Source: Thermodesulfobacteriota bacterium (lineage in GTDB: Bacteria > Desulfobacterota_D > UBA1144 > Nemesobacterales > UBA2774). From it: a stretch of 64,000 nucleotides of DNA. Below, piece by piece: positions 3-45,406 of this stretch. How positions within the stretch are numbered: the stretch's first letter is position 1; each line of letters begins with the position of its first letter. The DNA is taken from assembly GCA_963422265.1 (NCBI GenBank), contig OY729416.1, positions 192,001-256,000 on the forward strand, in the 5' to 3' direction. Below the pieces are notes generated by a model. The model made no database searches. It was not told the origin of the DNA and saw only the letters and a list, made by a program, of their open reading frames with translations. Both the position numbers and the translations under genes were made by a program.

Positions 3-2432
3 AAACGCGGCGTAATTATATGTCCTCCCGGACTTATTGGGGATGCAAGCAGAGATAGTGGTTGGAAGAAATACGTTGAAGACTTTCGTCTTTACGAGTG
101 GGAAGTTCGCTCGCTTGGCGATCTGGAAAACACTTTAGAATTTGTTAAAAAAGCCAAAGATATTGAAGTTGTCATCGTTGATGAGGCGCACCGTTTTAGA
201 AATCAGGATACGAAGGGATATGAGCTTCTCAAAAATATCTGTCGTGAGAAGCAGGTTATATTACTAACGGCTACTCCATTTAACAATAGGCCAGGAGACA
301 TTCTTTCACTTCTAAAACTTTTTATAAATCCTAAAAAATCTTCTATTACTTTAGACGGCAATCTGGTTAATCAATTTAGAGTATTTAAGGAGATTTTTGA
401 TAGGATTGCCTACATAAAAAAACACTGCAATTCCCCTGACTCTTCTAAAAGAAAGAAAGCGGAAAACTACTATAAGTCTTTATTTGAAGAAGAAGCGGTG
501 AATCTAAATAAAGTAGCGCGGCGCGCTCGTTATTTGTCAAAGCAAATTAGGGATGTAATTGAGCCTGTTACCATAAGGCGCAACCGCTTAGATTTGCGGA
601 ATAACCCTCTTTATAAAAATGAAGTAGAAAAATTCTCGAAGGTGGCTGACCCTATAGAATGGTTTTTTGAACTGAGTAGTGAGCAGTCGGAGTTTTACTC
701 AAGAATAATTGAACATTATTTTGGGGATCCGGAGGGTGGCAGGCGATTCAAAGGGGCGATTTATCGACCATTTGAATATGAGATAGACGTTGAAAAAGAT
801 ATAGGCGAAGGTAATAACCGGCAATTACAGCAACAGCGCAACTTATTTGATTTTATGCGACGGTTGCTTGTAAAGCGTTTTGAGAGTTCCTTTGGTTCGT
901 TTAAGCAGAGTATCAAAAACTTTAAGAAAATTACAGAGAGCTGTAAGAAATTCATTGATAAAACAGGTGAGTATATTCTTGACCGCGCCCTTTTGGAAAA
1001 AATCTATGAATTAGACCTTGAGGAGATTGAAGAACGCCTGCTTGATTATGAAGAAAAAATAAACAGGGACGAATATCCGAAAAATCATAAACGCTATAAG
1101 TTAAAGAATTTTAAGCGTAGGGATGAGTTTATATCTGATTTAGAGTCCGATCTTGACTTATTTGATGAAATTCTAAAAATGCTCTCAACGCTGGATTTAG
1201 TCCAAAGCGACCCCAAGATGTCTTGCCTAATACAGAATATAAAAAGAGAGCTAAAGAAAAAGCCGAAGGCAGGAGAACCAAAGCGGAAAATTATCATTTT
1301 CTCTGAATACGTTGATACGGTGCGTTATTTGAGTAAGGCGATTAAGGAGGAATTTGGAAGCAGGACGCTAGTAGTAGATGGACCCTTGTTTAATTCAGGG
1401 ATCAAGCAAATAAATGAAAACTTCGACGCGTCTTATCCTAAGCAAAAGGAAGATTATGATATCCTACTTAGCTCCGATAAAATTTCTGAGGGCTTTAATC
1501 TCAACCGTGCTGGTATGGTGATTAACTACGATATTCCATGGAATCCCGTCCGGGTCATCCAGAGATTGGGAAGAATTAATCGTATCAGCAAAAGAGTGTT
1601 TGATGAGCTTTTCATCATCAACTTTTTCCCAACCGAAAGAGGGGCTAAGCACGTGCGATCTCGTGAAATAGCTACCGATAAGATGCTTCTAATTCATGCC
1701 GCGCTTGGAGAAGATTCCAAGATTTTTGATATTGACGAGGAGCCTTCCCCATCTGGCTTGTTTAACAGAATTCAGCAAAATCCAGATAGTAGGGAAGAGG
1801 AAAGTTTCTATACTAAAGCTCTCAGAAGGTTTTTGAAGATTAAGGACAATCATCCAGAATTGATTAAAAATCTAGATGGCTATCCGCCACGAATTAAGGT
1901 AGCCAAAAAACATAGTGAAAATGAGCTTTTGGTTTTCTTTAAGAAGGTCCGCTTATACGTAACGGCTGCTAGTACCGACGTAGAAAACCTTAAACCGTAT
2001 TATATGGATTTTGAAGATGCGTTTGACAAGATTGTCTGCACGAACGATGAAGAAGGGATAGACTGGAATACGGATCAATTCTGGAGGGCTTATCAAAGGA
2101 TCAAGGAGTTTAAGGATTACTCTTCGAGATCAAATAGCGAGCAGAGTTTGGAGCAAAAAGCTCTAAACAATCTCGACTTTCTTGCCAGAAGTGATAAAGA
2201 AGAACTGATGCCTCTTAAAGACTTCCTACGCACTCTAAGGGATGATATTGCTTATTACGGCACGCTTTCAGATTATACTATGCGCCGAATAGCCAATTTC
2301 AAAGAGAATTCTAGTGAAGACGTTAAGAAGCTGATGGATGAGTTAGGCAAAGATTATTTGCTCAGAGAAAAAAGCCGTGAAAAAGCCCAGAAAAGAGAAG
2401 TCATTATAGCTATTGAGAATAAAAAAGCATGA
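3..2432 (+). CDS. SF2 (SNF2-like) helicase of a restriction-modification-type defence operon, 5'-truncated by the window edge
   Basis: The frame of ORF 498..2432 is open back to base 3 (KRGVIICPPGL...VVIVDEAHRFRN...LLTATPFNN = motifs II and III). It has a C-terminal helicase domain (IIIFSEYVDT, SEGFNL, YDIPWNPVRVIQRLGRINR) and an ATGA overlap with the methyltransferase. Confidence 0.85.
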   Translation, partial: KRGVIICPPGLIGDASRDSGWKKYVEDFRLYEWEVRSLGDLENTLEFVKKAKDIEVVIVDEAHRFRNQDTKGYELLKNICREKQVILLTATPFNNRPGDILSLLKLFINPKKSSITLDGNLVNQFRVFKEIFDRIAYIKKHCNSPDSSKRKKAENYYKSLFEEEAVNLNKVARRARYLSKQIRDVIEPVTIRRNRLDLRNNPLYKNEVEKFSKVADPIEWFFELSSEQSEFYSRIIEHYFGDPEGGRRFKGAIYRPFEYEIDVEKDIGEGNNRQLQQQRNLFDFMRRLLVKRFESSFGSFKQSIKNFKKITESCKKFIDKTGEYILDRALLEKIYELDLEEIEERLLDYEEKINRDEYPKNHKRYKLKNFKRRDEFISDLESDLDLFDEILKMLSTLDLVQSDPKMSCLIQNIKRELKKKPKAGEPKRKIIIFSEYVDTVRYLSKAIKEEFGSRTLVVDGPLFNSGIKQINENFDASYPKQKEDYDILLSSDKISEGFNLNRAGMVINYDIPWNPVRVIQRLGRINRISKRVFDELFIINFFPTERGAKHVRSREIATDKMLLIHAALGEDSKIFDIDEEPSPSGLFNRIQQNPDSREEESFYTKALRRFLKIKDNHPELIKNLDGYPPRIKVAKKHSENELLVFFKKVRLYVTAASTDVENLKPYYMDFEDAFDKIVCTNDEEGIDWNTDQFWRAYQRIKEFKDYSSRSNSEQSLEQKALNNLDFLARSDKEELMPLKDFLRTLRDDIAYYGTLSDYTMRRIANFKENSSEDVKKLMDELGKDYLLREKSREKAQKREVIIAIENKKA

Positions 2433-5400
2433 GCGAAGCCTTACGACGTTTAGAGTCAATAATTCATGGTGATAGCTTCTCGGTCGAGGACTTCAATCTC
2501 TTTTTTCGGGAGAAAAGCAGGGACTACATACAACTAGATCAGCGTTGCTCTAACTATGAAGATGAGGAGTTCAAAGACATTGTTAAACTCGGCAAGATTA
2601 AATTTCCTGATGGAGATAGCCGCCTTATCTGCTTCTCTATAAAAGTCCTAAACAATCTCACCGAGCGCGCGGGCAAGAAGAAACAATATGAGAAAGCCAA
2701 AAGGATATTGAAATCAGATGAAGGTGGAATGAACTCAACTGGTATATTCATTTTTTACGATTCAGGCGGTAGCTTCCGATTTTCCCTTATTTATTCAGAA
2801 TCGTTTGGAACAAGAAATAAGTGGAGCAATTTTCGCCGATTTACGTATTTCGTTGACAAAAGCCTAACTAACAAAACCTTTAAGCATCAAATCGGTGAAG
2901 GCGATTTCTCAACTCTAGAGGCAATCAAAGACGCCTTCTCAGTTGAGAAGGTTACCAAGGAATTCTATCAAGCAATTGCTAACTGGTATTTCTGGGTGGT
3001 TGGACTATCTCAATTTCCCAAGGATGCGGAGGCGGAAGAGGGCGGGCGCAATATCTCTATTATTAGGCTTATAACGCGGATAATTTTCATCTGGTTTATG
3101 CGCGAGCGGGGATTGGTGTCCAAAGACTTATTTGATAAGACATCTATAAAACAGATTCTAAAACACTTTGATCCACTTGATTCAGAAGACTCTAATTACT
3201 ATAAAGCTATTCTACAGAATCTGTTTTTCGCTACGCTTAGTGCTAAAAAAGAAGAACGCAAGTTCAGAACAGAGCAACGAGGGTATAAAGGCTATAATCG
3301 TCACTTTGGCTATAAATACGTCTTCCGTTATCACGCGCTCTTCAAAAATCCTGATAAGATAAAAGACATATTTGATGATACTCCTTTCCTAAACGGCGGG
3401 CTTTTTGAGTGCTTGGATGATAGAAAGAAAGACGTTTTCATTGATGGTTTTACAGACGTTAAAAAACATCAGCCTACCGTGCCAAACCTGCTTTTCTTTA
3501 GTGATGAGAAGGCGGTAGATCTAAATAAGTTTTATGGCACGAAAAACAAAACTCACAAAGTGCGAGGGCTTCTTAATACCCTTTCCTCGTTTAATTTTAC
3601 TATAGATGAGAACACGCCGGATGATCAAGACGTTGCACTTGATCCAGAGCTACTAGGACGAGTCTTTGAAAATCTACTCGCCAGTTTTAACCCGCAGACC
3701 TCCACGACTGCCCGCAAAGCTACGGGAAGCTATTATACGCCTAGAAAAATTGTGGATTACATGGTTACCGAATCACTCAAGGCTTACTTAAAAACTAGTC
3801 TCGAGAATGAGGGTATAGAAGACGTAGATGGCAAACTTAAGAGTTTATTCATTGTGGACAACGAGGAAAATCCTTTTGACGAACGGCAATCAAGGAAGCT
3901 AGTTGATTTGATTGAAAGCGTCAGAATCGTTGATCCTGCCGTTGGTTCAGGCGCGTTTCCAATGGGAGTGCTTAATAAGCTGGTGTTTATTCTCAATAAG
4001 GTTGATCCGGATAACAAGTTATGGAAGTCGGCTCAACTCAAGGTGGTGGATGCTATATCTGATCCTAGCGCGAGGCGGAAAGCTAGGGAGAGCATAGAGA
4101 AGTTTTTTGAAGGGAAGAACGCCGATTATGGTAGAAAGTTGTATTTGATCCAACGGTGTATTTACGGTGTTGATATTCAGCAAATTGCGGTTGAGATTGC
4201 CAAACTCCGATTTTTTATATCTCTTCTGGTTGATGAAAGGATTGATAAGGATTCTTATAACCATGGCATAGAACCCTTGCCAAACCTAGATTTCAAGATT
4301 ATGCAGGGGAATAGCCTGATTGAACTTATTTCCTATACCATTACAAAAGACAGGGAAAGAGATGAAATAGTTAGAGAACTGAAAAAGCTGAAAGATGAAT
4401 TGTTTAGCATTGCCTTACCAGAAGCGAAGCGTAACAAGCGAGATGAAATAGAAAGATTGACTGAAAAACTCTTTGAACGGGATAGGAGTAAAAAGATAGA
4501 AGAATATGAACTAGAAATAAAGGCAATAGAGGCACAGGATGGGCTATTTGAGGATAGTGGAGCTAGAAGGAGACAGAAAGAGAATGAGAAAAAGATAAAT
4601 GAATACAAATTGAAAATTGAAAGGATTAGAAATCTACAAGTTCTGGGACCTGCAGATCACTTTGAATGGCATATCTACTTTTCTGAGGTCTTTCAAGAAA
4701 ACGAGGGGTTTGACATAGTAATAGGCAACCCGCCTTATGGCGTCAAAATCAGCCAGGCTAATCTGAAAGCTATCAAAGCAAATATTCGCGATACGAAAAA
4801 TACCAACAGCGCGGCACTGTTTGCTGACTATGCAAAAAACCGTTTCATTAACAAAGATGGAGTGGTGTCCCTGATTGTTCCCAAGTCTTTGTTGTTTTCA
4901 GAAAGATGGCTGGATTTGGCGTTTGGATTACTGCCTAAAACAGTAGTGCTGGTGGATGTTGAAAAGGCATTTGAGAGGGTCAAGCTGGAGCAGGTGGTAC
5001 TCATTTGGTCAGCCAAGTGTAATGACAACTTTTATATCGGGCGTAAGTTTCTCAACAATACTTTTATGCAAACGACCCAAATCAATAGAAAATATCCGAA
5101 AAAGTTTCAGGCGTGGATATGTTCTGTGTCAGAAGTGGAAATTGCTCTGGGCAGTAAGATCTCCAGCATTGGGACATTCCTCCGCAAGGTTTCAAAGACC
5201 AGCAGAGGTTTGGCAATACAGAAAGACCTTGCGCCGACCGGTGATATACCCGTGCTTGGAGGCAAAGAGATTAGGCGCTACGCCATCCGTGGCATAAAAG
5301 GCTATATCAGCCGTGAACATCTAGACATGAACAGCCGCAAGGTTCAGTTCTTGCTTCAGCCGAAAGTGATTTCTCAGAGACTTGTGGCTCATATTCAGAA

Positions 5401-5806
5401 TCCTCAGCTTCATGTCAAAATAATTTCTACGGTTGATAAAGTTGGCGATATATTGAGTGTTGATACGGTGGAAAACACGGTTATTACAGATGAAATTTTT
5501 AGTCCGGTTTTTATCTCGTCTCTTTTTAATTCAGTGCTCATAAACTGGTACGCTTACAGATTTATTTTTTGTTCCGCAATTAGAACTATGGATTTCGATA
5601 ATTACTATGTAGGCAAGATTCCTGTTCCCATTGTTATGACTGAACAGCAAGCACCGATCATCGCCCTGGCAACGGATATTCTCGCTGCCAAAGCCGCCGA
5701 CCCGAATGCGGACACTACCGCTTTGGAAGGGGAAGTTGATCGGCTGATCTATGGGTTATACGGACTGACGGAGGAGGAAATAGCGGTGGTAGAGAAACGC
5801 GAATGA
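2429..5806 (+). CDS. Eco57I/type IIG-like N6-adenine DNA methyltransferase with C-terminal target-recognition (TaqI_C-like) domain
   Basis: 1125 aa with GSYYTP, motif I DPAVGSGAF, motif IV GNPPY, PFLNGGLF and the C-terminal IDRLIYGLYGLTEEEI-type tail. Confidence 0.9.
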   Translation: MSEALRRLESIIHGDSFSVEDFNLFFREKSRDYIQLDQRCSNYEDEEFKDIVKLGKIKFPDGDSRLICFSIKVLNNLTERAGKKKQYEKAKRILKSDEGGMNSTGIFIFYDSGGSFRFSLIYSESFGTRNKWSNFRRFTYFVDKSLTNKTFKHQIGEGDFSTLEAIKDAFSVEKVTKEFYQAIANWYFWVVGLSQFPKDAEAEEGGRNISIIRLITRIIFIWFMRERGLVSKDLFDKTSIKQILKHFDPLDSEDSNYYKAILQNLFFATLSAKKEERKFRTEQRGYKGYNRHFGYKYVFRYHALFKNPDKIKDIFDDTPFLNGGLFECLDDRKKDVFIDGFTDVKKHQPTVPNLLFFSDEKAVDLNKFYGTKNKTHKVRGLLNTLSSFNFTIDENTPDDQDVALDPELLGRVFENLLASFNPQTSTTARKATGSYYTPRKIVDYMVTESLKAYLKTSLENEGIEDVDGKLKSLFIVDNEENPFDERQSRKLVDLIESVRIVDPAVGSGAFPMGVLNKLVFILNKVDPDNKLWKSAQLKVVDAISDPSARRKARESIEKFFEGKNADYGRKLYLIQRCIYGVDIQQIAVEIAKLRFFISLLVDERIDKDSYNHGIEPLPNLDFKIMQGNSLIELISYTITKDRERDEIVRELKKLKDELFSIALPEAKRNKRDEIERLTEKLFERDRSKKIEEYELEIKAIEAQDGLFEDSGARRRQKENEKKINEYKLKIERIRNLQVLGPADHFEWHIYFSEVFQENEGFDIVIGNPPYGVKISQANLKAIKANIRDTKNTNSAALFADYAKNRFINKDGVVSLIVPKSLLFSERWLDLAFGLLPKTVVLVDVEKAFERVKLEQVVLIWSAKCNDNFYIGRKFLNNTFMQTTQINRKYPKKFQAWICSVSEVEIALGSKISSIGTFLRKVSKTSRGLAIQKDLAPTGDIPVLGGKEIRRYAIRGIKGYISREHLDMNSRKVQFLLQPKVISQRLVAHIQNPQLHVKIISTVDKVGDILSVDTVENTVITDEIFSPVFISSLFNSVLINWYAYRFIFCSAIRTMDFDNYYVGKIPVPIVMTEQQAPIIALATDILAAKAADPNADTTALEGEVDRLIYGLYGLTEEEIAVVEKRE

Positions 5807-43298: not shown

Positions 43299-44465
43299 TT
43301 ACACGAAGACTTGACTAAAGGGATCGGCGTGAGTCTTATCGCTGGCAAAGGGGTCAATCTTTTTCTTATCCGTTCTCTCTATTCTTATAACGCCGTTTTT
43401 CCTACTGGTCGCAATGAATTGGGATCCGCTGGTCTCACCTGAAATTTTTTGCAGTATTCGAGGATAATTTTTTGAACCAATAAATATAGAATGGATACAT
43501 ACCCCTAGCTTTTTGGCCCTTGTTCTTTCCGCTGTTACGCTACAGTCTCCAGACGTAGGTATGCCATCTGTAATTAAGAGTATGTGTTTGTTCCTAAGTC
43601 CTCTTCCTCTAAATTCGGAAAGCGCATCCTTGAGCGCGTCTTCATAGTTTGTGTTCCCAGAGCATTCGGTTTTGGAGGCTTCCTCTAGCATCCATTTATA
43701 ATCTCTGGTAAAGAACTTAGAATTTTTTCTATGTTTATAGGATCGGTGATTGAACTCAACGTATCCTACTCTCATTCTTTTAGATCTTGCTAGCTCTACA
43801 ACTCCCTTTACTACCGAAGAAGACCATTCGCTATACACTCCCATCATAGAGGTGCTTACGTCCCTTAGTATAGCGATCTCGCCTCCCATCGTTTCTTTCT
43901 CTCGCTTGTGAACTCTGGGAAGCGATGGAGTGGTATGCTCTGACCAGAAGGTCGCCTCAAACGGATCCACGTCCTCAATCTCATCAAAATGTCTCATTCG
44001 TTTCCAGGTTCTGGGCATACCGCCCGGGTGCGGTGCCCTTAACGCTATACTTTTCTGAAAGTTGCCCTCCAGGACTTTCATTATGATTTTTACATTATCG
44101 GCGGAGTCTAAATTCTTTCTCCCGCTTATCCAGTAGTCTTCTTCATCGCCTGGATCAGGAGACTTGCTTGCAAACACTTTGCTTGATTTAGGTGGTTCCC
44201 TATCGTCCTTCCTGCCAAGGTCATCGCTCAGTTGCCCAGTAGGATCAGAAGGAATATTCTGATCATCTGGAGGGGACATGTCGCTTTCATTCTGTATATT
44301 TTCTTTAAGTTCTTTTAACGCCTGAAAGAAGGTCTTTCTGGCTTCAGAGAGTTGGTCTTGAGGGGATTCTGATTTTTTAGTTGCTTCGTCGTCGGGTATT
44401 TCTTGGGTTTCCTCGCCTGGTGTATCCTGCTCAAATTCTGACTGTGATTCTTCTAGGTTACGGTC
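43299..44465 (-). CDS. Acidic linker plus vWA (MIDAS) domain, ViaA-like; frame probably entered by a -1 shift from the upstream ATPase
   Basis: MIDAS residues DVSTS, GNTN, ITDG. The frame is open for 62 codons upstream of ATG 44279, back to the A10 run, with no start codon. Confidence 0.8.
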   Translation of the reverse strand, partial: DRNLEESQSEFEQDTPGEETQEIPDDEATKKSESPQDQLSEARKTFFQALKELKENIQNESDMSPPDDQNIPSDPTGQLSDDLGRKDDREPPKSSKVFASKSPDPGDEEDYWISGRKNLDSADNVKIIMKVLEGNFQKSIALRAPHPGGMPRTWKRMRHFDEIEDVDPFEATFWSEHTTPSLPRVHKREKETMGGEIAILRDVSTSMMGVYSEWSSSVVKGVVELARSKRMRVGYVEFNHRSYKHRKNSKFFTRDYKWMLEEASKTECSGNTNYEDALKDALSEFRGRGLRNKHILLITDGIPTSGDCSVTAERTRAKKLGVCIHSIFIGSKNYPRILQKISGETSGSQFIATSRKNGVIRIERTDKKKIDPFASDKTHADPFSQVFV

Positions 44466-45406
44466 TTTTTTTTTTGAGGGGAAGTGACGTCTTCAAGTAT
44501 TTTGTCCATTTGCATGAGCACCTCTTCGGGGATACGAAAGGCGGTCATATATTTAAGCGCTTTCAGATCCTCGGTTGTGCAGTGCTTCCTATTATGCAGT
44601 AGCGCGTGCGCCCTTATTATTTTAAGCGACTTAACAAAGAACGTTCTGTCAGATATAAGAGAGTTTGTCTCGTTGCATCCGTAGTTTTCTATTAGCGTCG
44701 TTACGAAATTGGCTAATCCCTCCTGCACCTCAAGGGGCATCTCTACGCTACCGAGCTTTTCATAATACTCATCAAAGACTTCTTTGCTTACCCTCGCAGG
44801 CACGTCATATTCACCAGATCTTTTGCTGTAGAGCTTTATTACCTCTTTCGCTTCCTCCCATTTCCTTCCGTAAGAGAGCCCCTGAGCATTTATTTGAATG
44901 ATAAATCTATCCAGATTCGCAGGATCTAAAGGCTCGTTATAGTATTCATCCGCAGTTGGGTTACTAGTAGCTATGGCTGTAAGCAAGGGTATGTTCTCGT
45001 CAAAAAACTTCCTTTCATTAAGAATTCTAAGCAGCACGTTAAGCGATTCGCCCGGCGCGCGGGAGATGTCGTCCAAGAGGCAAATTTCAGACGTTAGGAT
45101 GCCACCCTTGACTATTTTTTGCTTAATTACTTCTCCGTTATCCGTAGTCTCTTTAGAGATTACTAGGTCTCCTATTAGCTCCGAGAGTCTCGTGTCTCTG
45201 TGTAGTTGGTAGAAGAAGAAGCCAAGCCGAGCTGCCCCCGATATGATTTCCGCGAGCATGGTTTTAGCCGTGCCAGGAGGACCCTCAATGTATATGTGCT
45301 CTCTAGCTATTACACCTAAAAGAAGGGATATTTTTACTTCCTCGTGTCCTACTACTAGCTTGTCCATTTCTTCTTTTAGGGCTACGAATGGATTATCTGC
45401 ACTCAT
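44453..45406 (-). CDS. RavA/MoxR-family AAA+ ATPase
   Basis: GPPGTAKT, ICLLDDI (Walker B), LNVLLRILNERKF, IATSN, LDPANLDRF, ISDR lid motif. Confidence 0.88.
   Translation of the reverse strand: MSADNPFVALKEEMDKLVVGHEEVKISLLLGVIAREHIYIEGPPGTAKTMLAEIISGAARLGFFFYQLHRDTRLSELIGDLVISKETTDNGEVIKQKIVKGGILTSEICLLDDISRAPGESLNVLLRILNERKFFDENIPLLTAIATSNPTADEYYNEPLDPANLDRFIIQINAQGLSYGRKWEEAKEVIKLYSKRSGEYDVPARVSKEVFDEYYEKLGSVEMPLEVQEGLANFVTTLIENYGCNETNSLISDRTFFVKSLKIIRAHALLHNRKHCTTEDLKALKYMTAFRIPEEVLMQMDKILEDVTSPQKKKTVT
44465..44475 (-). other. Candidate -1 frameshift / transcriptional slippage site (A10G; A_AAA_AAG in phase)
   Basis: The minus strand reads CCT CAA AAA AAA AAG ACC GTA ACC TAG. The -1 frame continues GAC CGT AAC into the vWA ORF. 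Confidence 0.7.

Follow-up and report, generated by a model that had tools for sequence, protein, structure and literature searches.

Here we describe a gene of a Thermodesulfobacteriota bacterium (GenBank assembly GCA_963422265.1, contig OY729416.1) that lies on the minus strand at positions 43299-45406 of the analysed window, a stretch of 64,000 nucleotides (nt). On balance, we consider it likely that this is one gene with a programmed recoding site at a run of ten adenines (A10), which acts mainly through slippage of RNA polymerase and yields two products: a MoxR-class AAA+ ATPase, and a longer protein in which the same ATPase is joined through an acidic linker to a vWA domain. Recoding of either kind at the run is highly probable, and if recoding occurs, we favour transcriptional slippage as its main route with reasonable confidence. 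An earlier note, made from the sequence alone, had proposed a 317-amino-acid (aa) ATPase and a fusion of about 702 aa made from one gene through this run, and the comparative evidence presented below, from the run itself, the frame state of relatives and selection on the linker, strongly supports that proposal.

In the scheme that we propose, standard decoding of A10 would produce a complete 317-aa MoxR-class AAA+ ATPase that terminates three codons past the run. A fraction of expression events would enter the −1 frame within the run and produce a 702-aa protein composed of the same AAA+ module, a disordered acidic linker, a conserved helix and a vWA/MIDAS domain. The likeliest route would be RNA-polymerase slippage on A10 (T10 in the template) to give A11 mRNAs, with A8 mRNAs likewise in frame, and a −1 ribosomal shift on the heptamer A_AAA_AAG may contribute. 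The motor subunit and the motor–adaptor subunit would both be needed and would presumably co-assemble, by analogy with ChlI plus ChlD. A fixed ratio of the two products and a mixed hexamer, also proposed in the earlier note, are conceivable.

Two overlapping reading frames and a solitary A10 run

The ATPase is the 317-aa product of standard decoding of a minus-strand, zero-frame open reading frame (ORF) at 44453..45406 (Table 1). The 3′ end of this ORF reads TCC CCT CAA AAA AAA AAG ACC GTA ACC TAG, in which A10 codes for the end of a glutamine and three lysines (KKK), where the folded AAA+ module gives way to the disordered linker; the next base is a G at 44465. The −1 frame is open from GAC (44465) to TAA (43301-43299), and the two frames overlap by 37 nt. 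The earliest ATG, GTG or TTG in the −1 frame is ATG 44279, which is codon 63 after A10. Because none of the preceding 62 codons, which encode 19 D/E against 7 K/R residues, is a possible start, these codons can be translated only by continuation from the ATPase frame. The predicted ATPase–linker–vWA fusion is 702 aa long. All of this agrees with the earlier note, which had described the end of the ATPase frame with A10 followed by G and A_AAA_AAG in phase, a TGA (44495-44493) from which the −1 frame opens six codons ahead of the run, an overlap of about 37 nt holding that run, and an acidic, start-less linker leading into a vWA ORF.

Table 1 Features of the recoded locus, in window coordinates
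Feature	Position	Strand	Basis
MoxR-class AAA+ ATPase, zero-frame ORF	44453..45406	-	ORF, Pfam and PDB sequence matches
Presumed Walker A, GPPGTAKT	45260..45283	-	nearly all residues invariant in alignments A6 and A7
Presumed Walker B region, LLDDISR, with DD instead of the usual DE	45059..45079	-	D112, D113 invariant
TGA closing the −1 frame, six codons 5′ of A10	44493..44495	-	sequence
A10 homopolymer, proposed slippage/recoding site	44466..44475	-	sequence, contigs, genome-wide count, relatives
A_AAA_AAG heptamer in zero-frame phase, possible −1 ribosomal frameshift site	44465..44471	-	sequence
Zero-frame stop codon TAG, three codons past AAG	44453..44455	-	sequence
−1-frame continuation (acidic linker, conserved helix, pre-vWA region, vWA domain), 388 codons plus TAA	43299..44465	-	sequence; tblastn matches in relatives start 7-12 residues past the frame opening
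62 linker codons without ATG, GTG or TTG	44280..44465	-	sequence; dN/dS
Conserved amphipathic helix EARKTFFQALKELKENI in the linker	44295..44345	-	alignment A1; dN/dS; AlphaFold2 helix 355-377 in a relative
First ATG of the −1 frame, start of a 326-aa ORF, 3′ of the conserved linker	44277..44279	-	ORF list
vWA domain with intact, presumably MIDAS-type motif DVSTS (43848-43862)	43413..43877	-	Pfam

Homopolymers are prone to sequencing error, and a few metagenome contigs among the relatives (L162, L164, L165 and L169) do resemble errors, but that the frame break is a miscalled run in a plain fusion gene, or the mark of a recent frameshift pseudogene, is barely credible. Contigs from three sequencing runs of three studies contain no indel across 43299-45406 and bear out the count of exactly ten adenines, with neither A11 nor A8 among them: the contig from run X1, which may be the source assembly, is identical to the window, run X6 represents a strain with 12 substitutions, and run X7 contributes a 771-nt contig that spans the junction and carries 7 substitutions. 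Moreover, the same −1 break recurs in most relatives, from assemblies with differing contig-name styles (k141_, NODE_ and chromosome-level), and both halves of the gene are more conserved than the neighbouring mltG (for AAA, about 84% identity against about 55%).

The run is also exceptional within its genome. It is the sole A/T homopolymer of at least 10 nt in 1,783,595 bp (GC content 44.1%), where about 7.5 are expected from composition. Runs of exactly 9 number 19, which makes 20 of at least 9 against about 27 expected. Long A/T homopolymers are depleted in this genome, and the junction A10 therefore stands out all the more. Eight of the 19 runs of 9 were examined, and all eight lie within ordinary uninterrupted genes.

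A constant run in a changing frame

To place the junction among its relatives, 41 genomes of the same order were searched in six frames with tblastn. The vWA half is present in 40; the only genome of the 41 without a vWA-half match is G026, which is 90% complete. Nearly all whole matches start 4-16 residues past the opening of the frame, inside the start-less linker. The junction was read in 38 of these genomes, leaving out G016 and G023, in which the matches lie at contig ends: 32 carry the vWA half in the −1 frame, five are in-frame fusions of 709-800 aa and one is in the +1 frame, all with A9-A11. From a scan of public genomes, the best 80 of 103 relatives were kept. The record titles of these 80 are mostly Candidatus Dadabacteria, Thermodesulfobacteriota and Deltaproteobacteria, with some under another or no taxon label, and the 79 loci with both halves comprise 64 in the −1 frame (2 with A9, 38 with A10 and 24 with A11) and 15 in frame.

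When pooled, the 117 loci reduce to 89 distinct genes, and to 87 without N; the L008/L053 junction, with an N right after the A run in one record, and L113, also with N, were left out of the clean-sequence counts. Of these 87 genes, 71 are in the −1 state (A9 in 3, A10 in 41, A11 in 27), 15 are in frame and one is in the +1 state. Every one of the 87 has an A9-A12 run at the same junction. Of the two features whose conservation the earlier note had wished to see checked, the A-rich site is thus general among the relatives and the −1 frame break is found in most of them. Elsewhere in these genes lysine is encoded by AAA in 2391 of 4624 codons; the junction is always uninterrupted A. This comparison indicates that the run is selected as DNA and not as Lys-Lys-Lys.

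We then built a FastTree phylogeny of 151 rows (90 in the −1 state, 56 in frame and five in the +1 state) from the AAA domain alone. The frame state changes at least 17 times on this tree, with 9-10 changes forced by well-supported branches, and all 151 rows keep an A9-A12 run at the junction. Sister pairs differ in run length (A11/A12, A10/A11 and A11/A9). Across these sequences, then, it appears that the frame state is labile and the run is constant.

Five genes on the tree place the vWA half in the +1 frame: L038 (from G035), L173, L162, L164 and L165. In four of the five, run length differs by one A, in either direction, from that of the nearest relatives. L162 has the same A10 as L121, a relative with an identical AAA domain, and its frame change therefore lies elsewhere. 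The five may reflect true variation or, alternatively, errors in the assembly of the homopolymer.

Changes in run length could also reflect phase variation at the DNA level, in which replication slippage toggles the run, only ‘ON’ cells with A11 or A8 make the fusion, and no recoding takes place. Some close relatives do differ by one or two A's (L055/L058, L024/L065, L007/L157 and L079/L173), so that the tract is either mutable or mis-assembled. However, whole deep clades (29 and 14 tree rows) consist of −1-state genes only, even though purifying selection on their vWA half is strong, A10 is found in all three assemblies of the species, from three studies, and the in-frame genes, too, retain the run together with stops close by in the other frames. 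We therefore regard phase variation as improbable.

The linker provides a separate line of evidence for the fusion. Among 28 diverse vWA-frame products (alignment A1), conserved motifs follow one another in the order SEF, helix EARKTFFQALKELKENI and SKS..G, upstream of any conserved methionine. The helix residues F46, L50 and L53 are invariant, whereas conservation across families does not extend to the methionine at ATG 44279. In 27 close −1-state genes, the start-less 62 codons have proportions of nonsynonymous and synonymous differences (pN and pS) of 0.174 and 0.706, a ratio of nonsynonymous to synonymous substitution rates (dN/dS) of ~0.09; for codons 38-62, which include the helix, dN/dS is ~0.045. 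These patterns indicate that the start-less linker is under purifying selection and is translated. The vWA frame has no ATG, GTG or TTG before the helix in 34 of 72 shifted genes. Many genes have a −1 frame that opens just 3 codons before the end of the run, where TCT-AAA makes a TAA; because the frame opens this late, within the run, the shift has to happen inside it.

The same observations bear on a simpler arrangement of two separate genes, in which the vWA protein starts by itself at ATG 44279 or elsewhere, no fusion is made and the linker is open by accident. MoxR ATPases often have separately encoded vWA partners, a 326-aa ORF does begin at ATG 44279, and 38 of the 72 shifted genes have some ATG, GTG or TTG in the linker. 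Against this stand the conservation, as protein, of the 62 codons 5′ of that ATG, the lack of conservation of its methionine, the 34 shifted genes with no start before the helix, and the in-frame fusions through the same linker in 15 of the 87 relatives and in the whole wider family. Initiation at ATG 44279 with no fusion, which the earlier note had set against its own proposal, is thus disfavoured, and we consider the two-gene arrangement very improbable.

Downstream of the linker, the vWA half is 60-80% identical across families and under strong purifying selection. Its Pfam scores are 40.3 bits for VWA, 34.1 for VWA_3, 33.0 for VWA_CoxE (cut-off 26.4) and 32.8 for VWA_2. DVSTS is presumably a MIDAS-type motif, and residues D202, S204, S206, T272 and D300 are invariant in alignment A1. 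With its invariant D-x-S-x-S, T and D, the −1-frame vWA domain shows the vWA/MIDAS partner trait of the MoxR class.

Beyond the close relatives, a search with a natural in-frame fusion (P0002, 705 aa) as query returned 223 proteins at E ≤ 1e-5. Among the 120 of these that were listed, most are fusions of 624-714 aa, and source names in the wider family are MoxR-like ATPase, AAA family ATPase and ATPase RavA. A subgroup at ~48% identity includes proteins labelled by their sources as Tectimicrobiota, Tectomicrobia and Entotheonellaceae. Because in-frame fusions are the normal form of the family elsewhere, an AAA–linker–vWA fusion is not in itself unusual. The junction peptide of 19 aligned representatives is KKK in 15 and KKN in one, and three have neither.

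In a metagenome set of 80 loci of this wider group, 76 of which have both halves, 68 of the 76 have at least 9 A at the junction. A GC-rich clade (GC 0.52-0.60), whose proteins bear the source label Tectimicrobiota, is in frame with A10 and reads CGA AAA AAA AAA GTA GCG CCT GA, in which a rare CGA codon lengthens the run. In this clade, an A-ending arginine codon (CGA or AGA) precedes KKK in 24 of 26 distinct in-frame genes, compared with 63 of 1179 elsewhere. Loss of one A from this junction gives AAG TAG, gain of one gives a stop after three codons, and in most genes of the clade both other frames stop within 0-3 codons. Over all 57 in-frame loci, 44% have a stop within 4 codons in each of the two alternative frames, compared with 4.8% of background positions. 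By these features, the in-frame genes look built to yield a short product by slippage. A separate observation concerns locus L163, which has kept A10 although its junction peptide is QKKN and not KKK, so that conservation of the DNA goes further here than that of the protein motif.

Eight of the 76 loci lack the run. One of them, L169, is a contig with several frame breaks and probably a low-quality assembly. The other seven (L170, L175-L177, L179, L182 and L183) have a GC content of 0.69-0.75, and all seven consist of two adjacent genes, an in-frame AAA–linker–vWA gene and an AAA-only gene (by Pfam for L175, region 1501-5727). In the four of these that were aligned (L175, L179, L182 and L183), the AAA-only copy keeps the TSNP motif and the fused copy lacks it; because of this loss, the fused copy looks like a ChlD-style degenerate motor. 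Neighbours related to molybdenum (Mo) enzymes were judged in the four loci whose contig extends past the AAA-only gene. CoxS-type 2Fe-2S genes directly follow the AAA-only gene in L175, L179 and L183, with a CoxL-type gene also in L175, and a gene for a MobA-like nucleoside triphosphate (NTP) transferase lies downstream of it in L182. In that locus, a 355-aa ORF (4422-5486, plus strand) joins MobA-like NTP transferase and nucleoside diphosphate kinase domains, which is an unusual fusion.

Polymerase slippage and ribosomal frameshifting

Slippage of RNA polymerase generally requires a run of about 9 A, and the run is never shorter than this among the relatives. Two further observations argue for slippage: −1, 0 and +1 relations between the frames all occur, and the in-frame genes keep stops in both other frames.

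The alternative is programmed −1 ribosomal frameshifting on A_AAA_AAG, in the style of Escherichia coli dnaX, as the main or only route to the fusion, with mRNAs that are faithful A10 copies. The heptamer is in phase at 44471-44465, and all 71 −1-frame genes have an in-phase A_AAA_AAN. There is also a precedent for shifting at poly-A sites of this kind. The ‘magnesium chelatase’ recoding cluster comprises 23 genes from six genera with poly-A runs of 7-11, and in E. coli reporters the shifted product amounted to 10-63% (Antonov et al. 2013, PMC3711429); the process is described there and in a later study as frameshifting (Kuznetsov et al. 2022, PMC9227772).

Several results speak against a purely ribosomal route. 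No conserved downstream stem–loop or pseudoknot was found: RNAalifold returned 0 consensus pairs from -30 to +90 in 20 diverse loci, no stable downstream fold was seen in the window (-5.8 kcal/mol, z +1.1), and other single-sequence folds had z values of -2.2 to +1.3. No GGAGG or other Shine–Dalgarno (SD)-like element was seen upstream of the run in the window sequence. The genome encodes tRNA-Lys(CUU) as well as tRNA-Lys(UUU), and the presence of the former is an argument against a ribosomal shift. Furthermore, the run never falls to the 6-7 A's that would suffice for the ribosome, and frameshifting would leave unexplained both the +1-state genes and the alternative-frame stops of the in-frame genes. 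The earlier note had named both mechanisms; of the two, transcriptional slippage appears the more likely, and the −1 ribosomal shift less so given that the run is never below 9, that frame states vary and that no structure is conserved. As the main or only route, we judge the ribosomal shift unlikely.

Some points weigh against our preferred reading of one gene recoded mainly by polymerase slippage. Because any run of at least 7 A holds an in-phase X_XXY_YYZ heptamer, a ribosomal −1 shift stays compatible with every −1 gene. In the published chlD cases, the shift is described as translational, with downstream structures (PMC9227772). None of the sequencing runs found to contain the locus is recorded as RNA. 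The contig from run X7 reads A10; its label as ‘RNA?’ is a guess, and contigs drop minority variants, so that rare A11 transcripts would not show in it. In addition, the relatives are kin, and their counts overstate independence. Many of the loci are metagenome assemblies in which homopolymer length is open to mis-calling, and some of the 17 state changes and of the five +1 rows may be assembly errors.

A MoxR-class motor and its relation to known systems

By Pfam, PDB sequence and modelled fold, the ATPase is MoxR-class. Pfam profiles of this class score above their curated cut-offs (in brackets) over the whole AAA+ module: 72.9 bits for bpMoxR (27), 66.5 for AAA_5 (22), 43.5 for AAA_3 (27) and 30.5 for AAA_lid_8 (22.8). 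The nearest PDB entry by sequence is 2r44 (2.4e-19), then RavA (2.3e-12), and a Foldseek search with a model of a relative's fusion gave 2r44 (7e-19) and RavA (1e-14), with MCMs after them. We take GPPGTAKT to be Walker A and LLDDISR, with DD in place of the canonical hhhhDE, to be Walker B. Neither D112 nor D113 varies among 115 fused homologues or among the AAA-only genes of the high-GC relatives, and this invariant DD hints at an unusual or slow ATPase.

Closer assignments were considered and rejected. For RavA proper, the equivalog NF010054 scored 61.7 bits against a cut-off of 681 (58.9 for a fused relative), and the ATPase product has 317 aa, compared with about 498 aa, including C-terminal domains, expected of RavA. 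For ChlI/ChlD, Mg_chelatase (PF01078) aligned only with residues 18-56, at 20.4 bits (profile positions 5-43 of 207), and TIGR02442 scored 28.1 bits against a cut-off of 779, covering only the lid and linker. BchD-ChlD models gave no match at E ≤ 1, no chelatase chain is among the 43 PDB sequence matches, and the ChlH/CobN large subunit (PF02514) was not found in the 99.4%-complete, single-contig genome. The earlier note had placed the ATPase with RavA/MoxR rather than ChlI/ChlD; membership of the MoxR class and separation from ChlI/ChlD hold, and identity with RavA does not. A defence role, suggested by the bpMoxR match, was likewise dropped, as PADLOC yielded only an 18.7-bit P-loop match to IetA.

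An AlphaFold2 model of a natural in-frame relative's fusion (115-row alignment; mean predicted local distance difference test (pLDDT) score 71.9) shows a folded AAA+ module at residues 1-305, KKK at 310-312, disorder at 310-356, a helix at 355-377, disorder at 376-439 and a vWA fold from ~437 to 685. In this model, the poly-A run sits exactly at the domain boundary. Because residues 1-305 fold in the model, with KKK and disorder after them, the truncated product would be a complete motor. A complex prediction for the AAA product with the linker–vWA product scored 0.00 and, being without controls, counts neither way.

The gene stands alone, convergent with mltG and proB (window 42261-43289 (+) and 41122-42264 (+), respectively). 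Of 80 related loci, 71-73 share this arrangement, which offers no hint of function. Among relatives, identity is about 45-60% for MltG and about 70-86% for the ATPase. A carbon monoxide dehydrogenase (CODH)-type client was considered for the window's genome, in which the Mo-hydroxylase large subunit PF02738 was not found; because of this, the client there would differ from the CoxD/CoxE type.

Annotation pipelines will call a locus of this kind two genes or a pseudogene. By its presence in 40 of 41 genomes and its conservation relative to its neighbours, the gene is probably among the most conserved of a streamlined lineage. What is new here is probably the use of a known recoding trick, that of chlD and dnaX, in a different and little-studied protein family. 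The design in which one gene supplies a short and a long subunit would thereby reach beyond chelatases and the clamp loader and take in chaperone ATPases of the MoxR class. The family also offers an unusually clean natural series, comprising a −1-split gene, an in-frame gene with a slip-to-stop site, and two genes. As the same pair appears in these three encodings, we argue that both the motor-only and the motor–adaptor subunit are required. The series yields a testable hypothesis for the assembly of MoxR–vWA systems, and would be a good model in which to measure transcriptional slippage against ribosomal frameshifting.

More speculatively, and as an idea that we hold only tentatively, the poly-A run might serve a two-subunit, ChlI/ChlD-like machine with a MoxR-class motor as a ‘stoichiometry dial’, one that is ancient and shared across phyla. 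Run length and frame state would set the number of vWA-carrying subunits per mixed ring. Lineages would repeatedly re-tune it when one A is gained or lost (at least 17 switches), or would fix it through gene duplication where their GC content leaves little room for a long A run. If this were true, and if slippage frequency responds to NTP pools, temperature or growth rate, the ratio would be regulated without a regulator protein.

The frameshifted chlD gene (fs-chlD), which the earlier note had chosen as precedent, is indeed the right one (PMC3711429, PMC9227772). It encodes the small and medium chelatase subunits in a single gene, has two-gene descendants and includes carriers without the large subunit (PMC9227772); the cluster is also treated by Atkins et al. 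2016 (PMC5009743). As in fs-chlD, one gene here would give a short AAA+ and a long AAA+–linker–vWA subunit, an A-rich site lies at the AAA/linker junction, and other taxa have in-frame fused and two-gene versions (chlI + chlD in the chelatase case). Some fs-chlD carriers have neither a large subunit nor a known function, and the window's genome is also without CobN/ChlH. The differences are that downstream RNA structures are described for fs-chlD and none is conserved here, and that the AAA+ family is another one (bpMoxR, AAA_5 and AAA_3). The earlier note knew of no such recoding in the RavA/MoxR clade, and no report of it for a MoxR–vWA gene was found in the literature searched, although the supplementary gene lists of PMC3711429 and PMC9227772 may hold members of the family.

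For dnaX, transcriptional slippage occurs on A9 in Thermus thermophilus, and other dnaX genes with A10 need recoding for the longer subunit (PMC3711429). Our gene resembles these types in having a homopolymer of 9-10 A, short and long products that would share an N terminus, a long form that is either in frame or needs a shift, and alternative frames that close quickly. It is unlike them in that the dnaX products are unrelated proteins, the clamp-loader subunits, and that here one layout has repeatedly turned into the other inside a single clade. In E. coli dnaX, the −1 shift uses A_AAA_AAG with an upstream SD-like element and a downstream hairpin (PMC3711429). The same heptamer is present here, in phase, but stimulators were found neither in the window nor in the 20 loci, tRNA-Lys(CUU) is present, and a shift would lengthen the product instead of shortening it.

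BchI/BchD (ChlI/ChlD), CoxD/CoxE and RavA–ViaA are two-gene pairs of motor and adaptor. The gene described here shares with all three the combination of a MoxR/chelatase-type AAA+ motor with a vWA/MIDAS protein. As to CoxD/CoxE, its vWA half matches VWA_CoxE, and CoxS-type genes follow the pair in three of its high-GC two-gene relatives; PF02738 was not found in the window's genome. It differs from these pairs in that both products would come from one gene in the window's genome.

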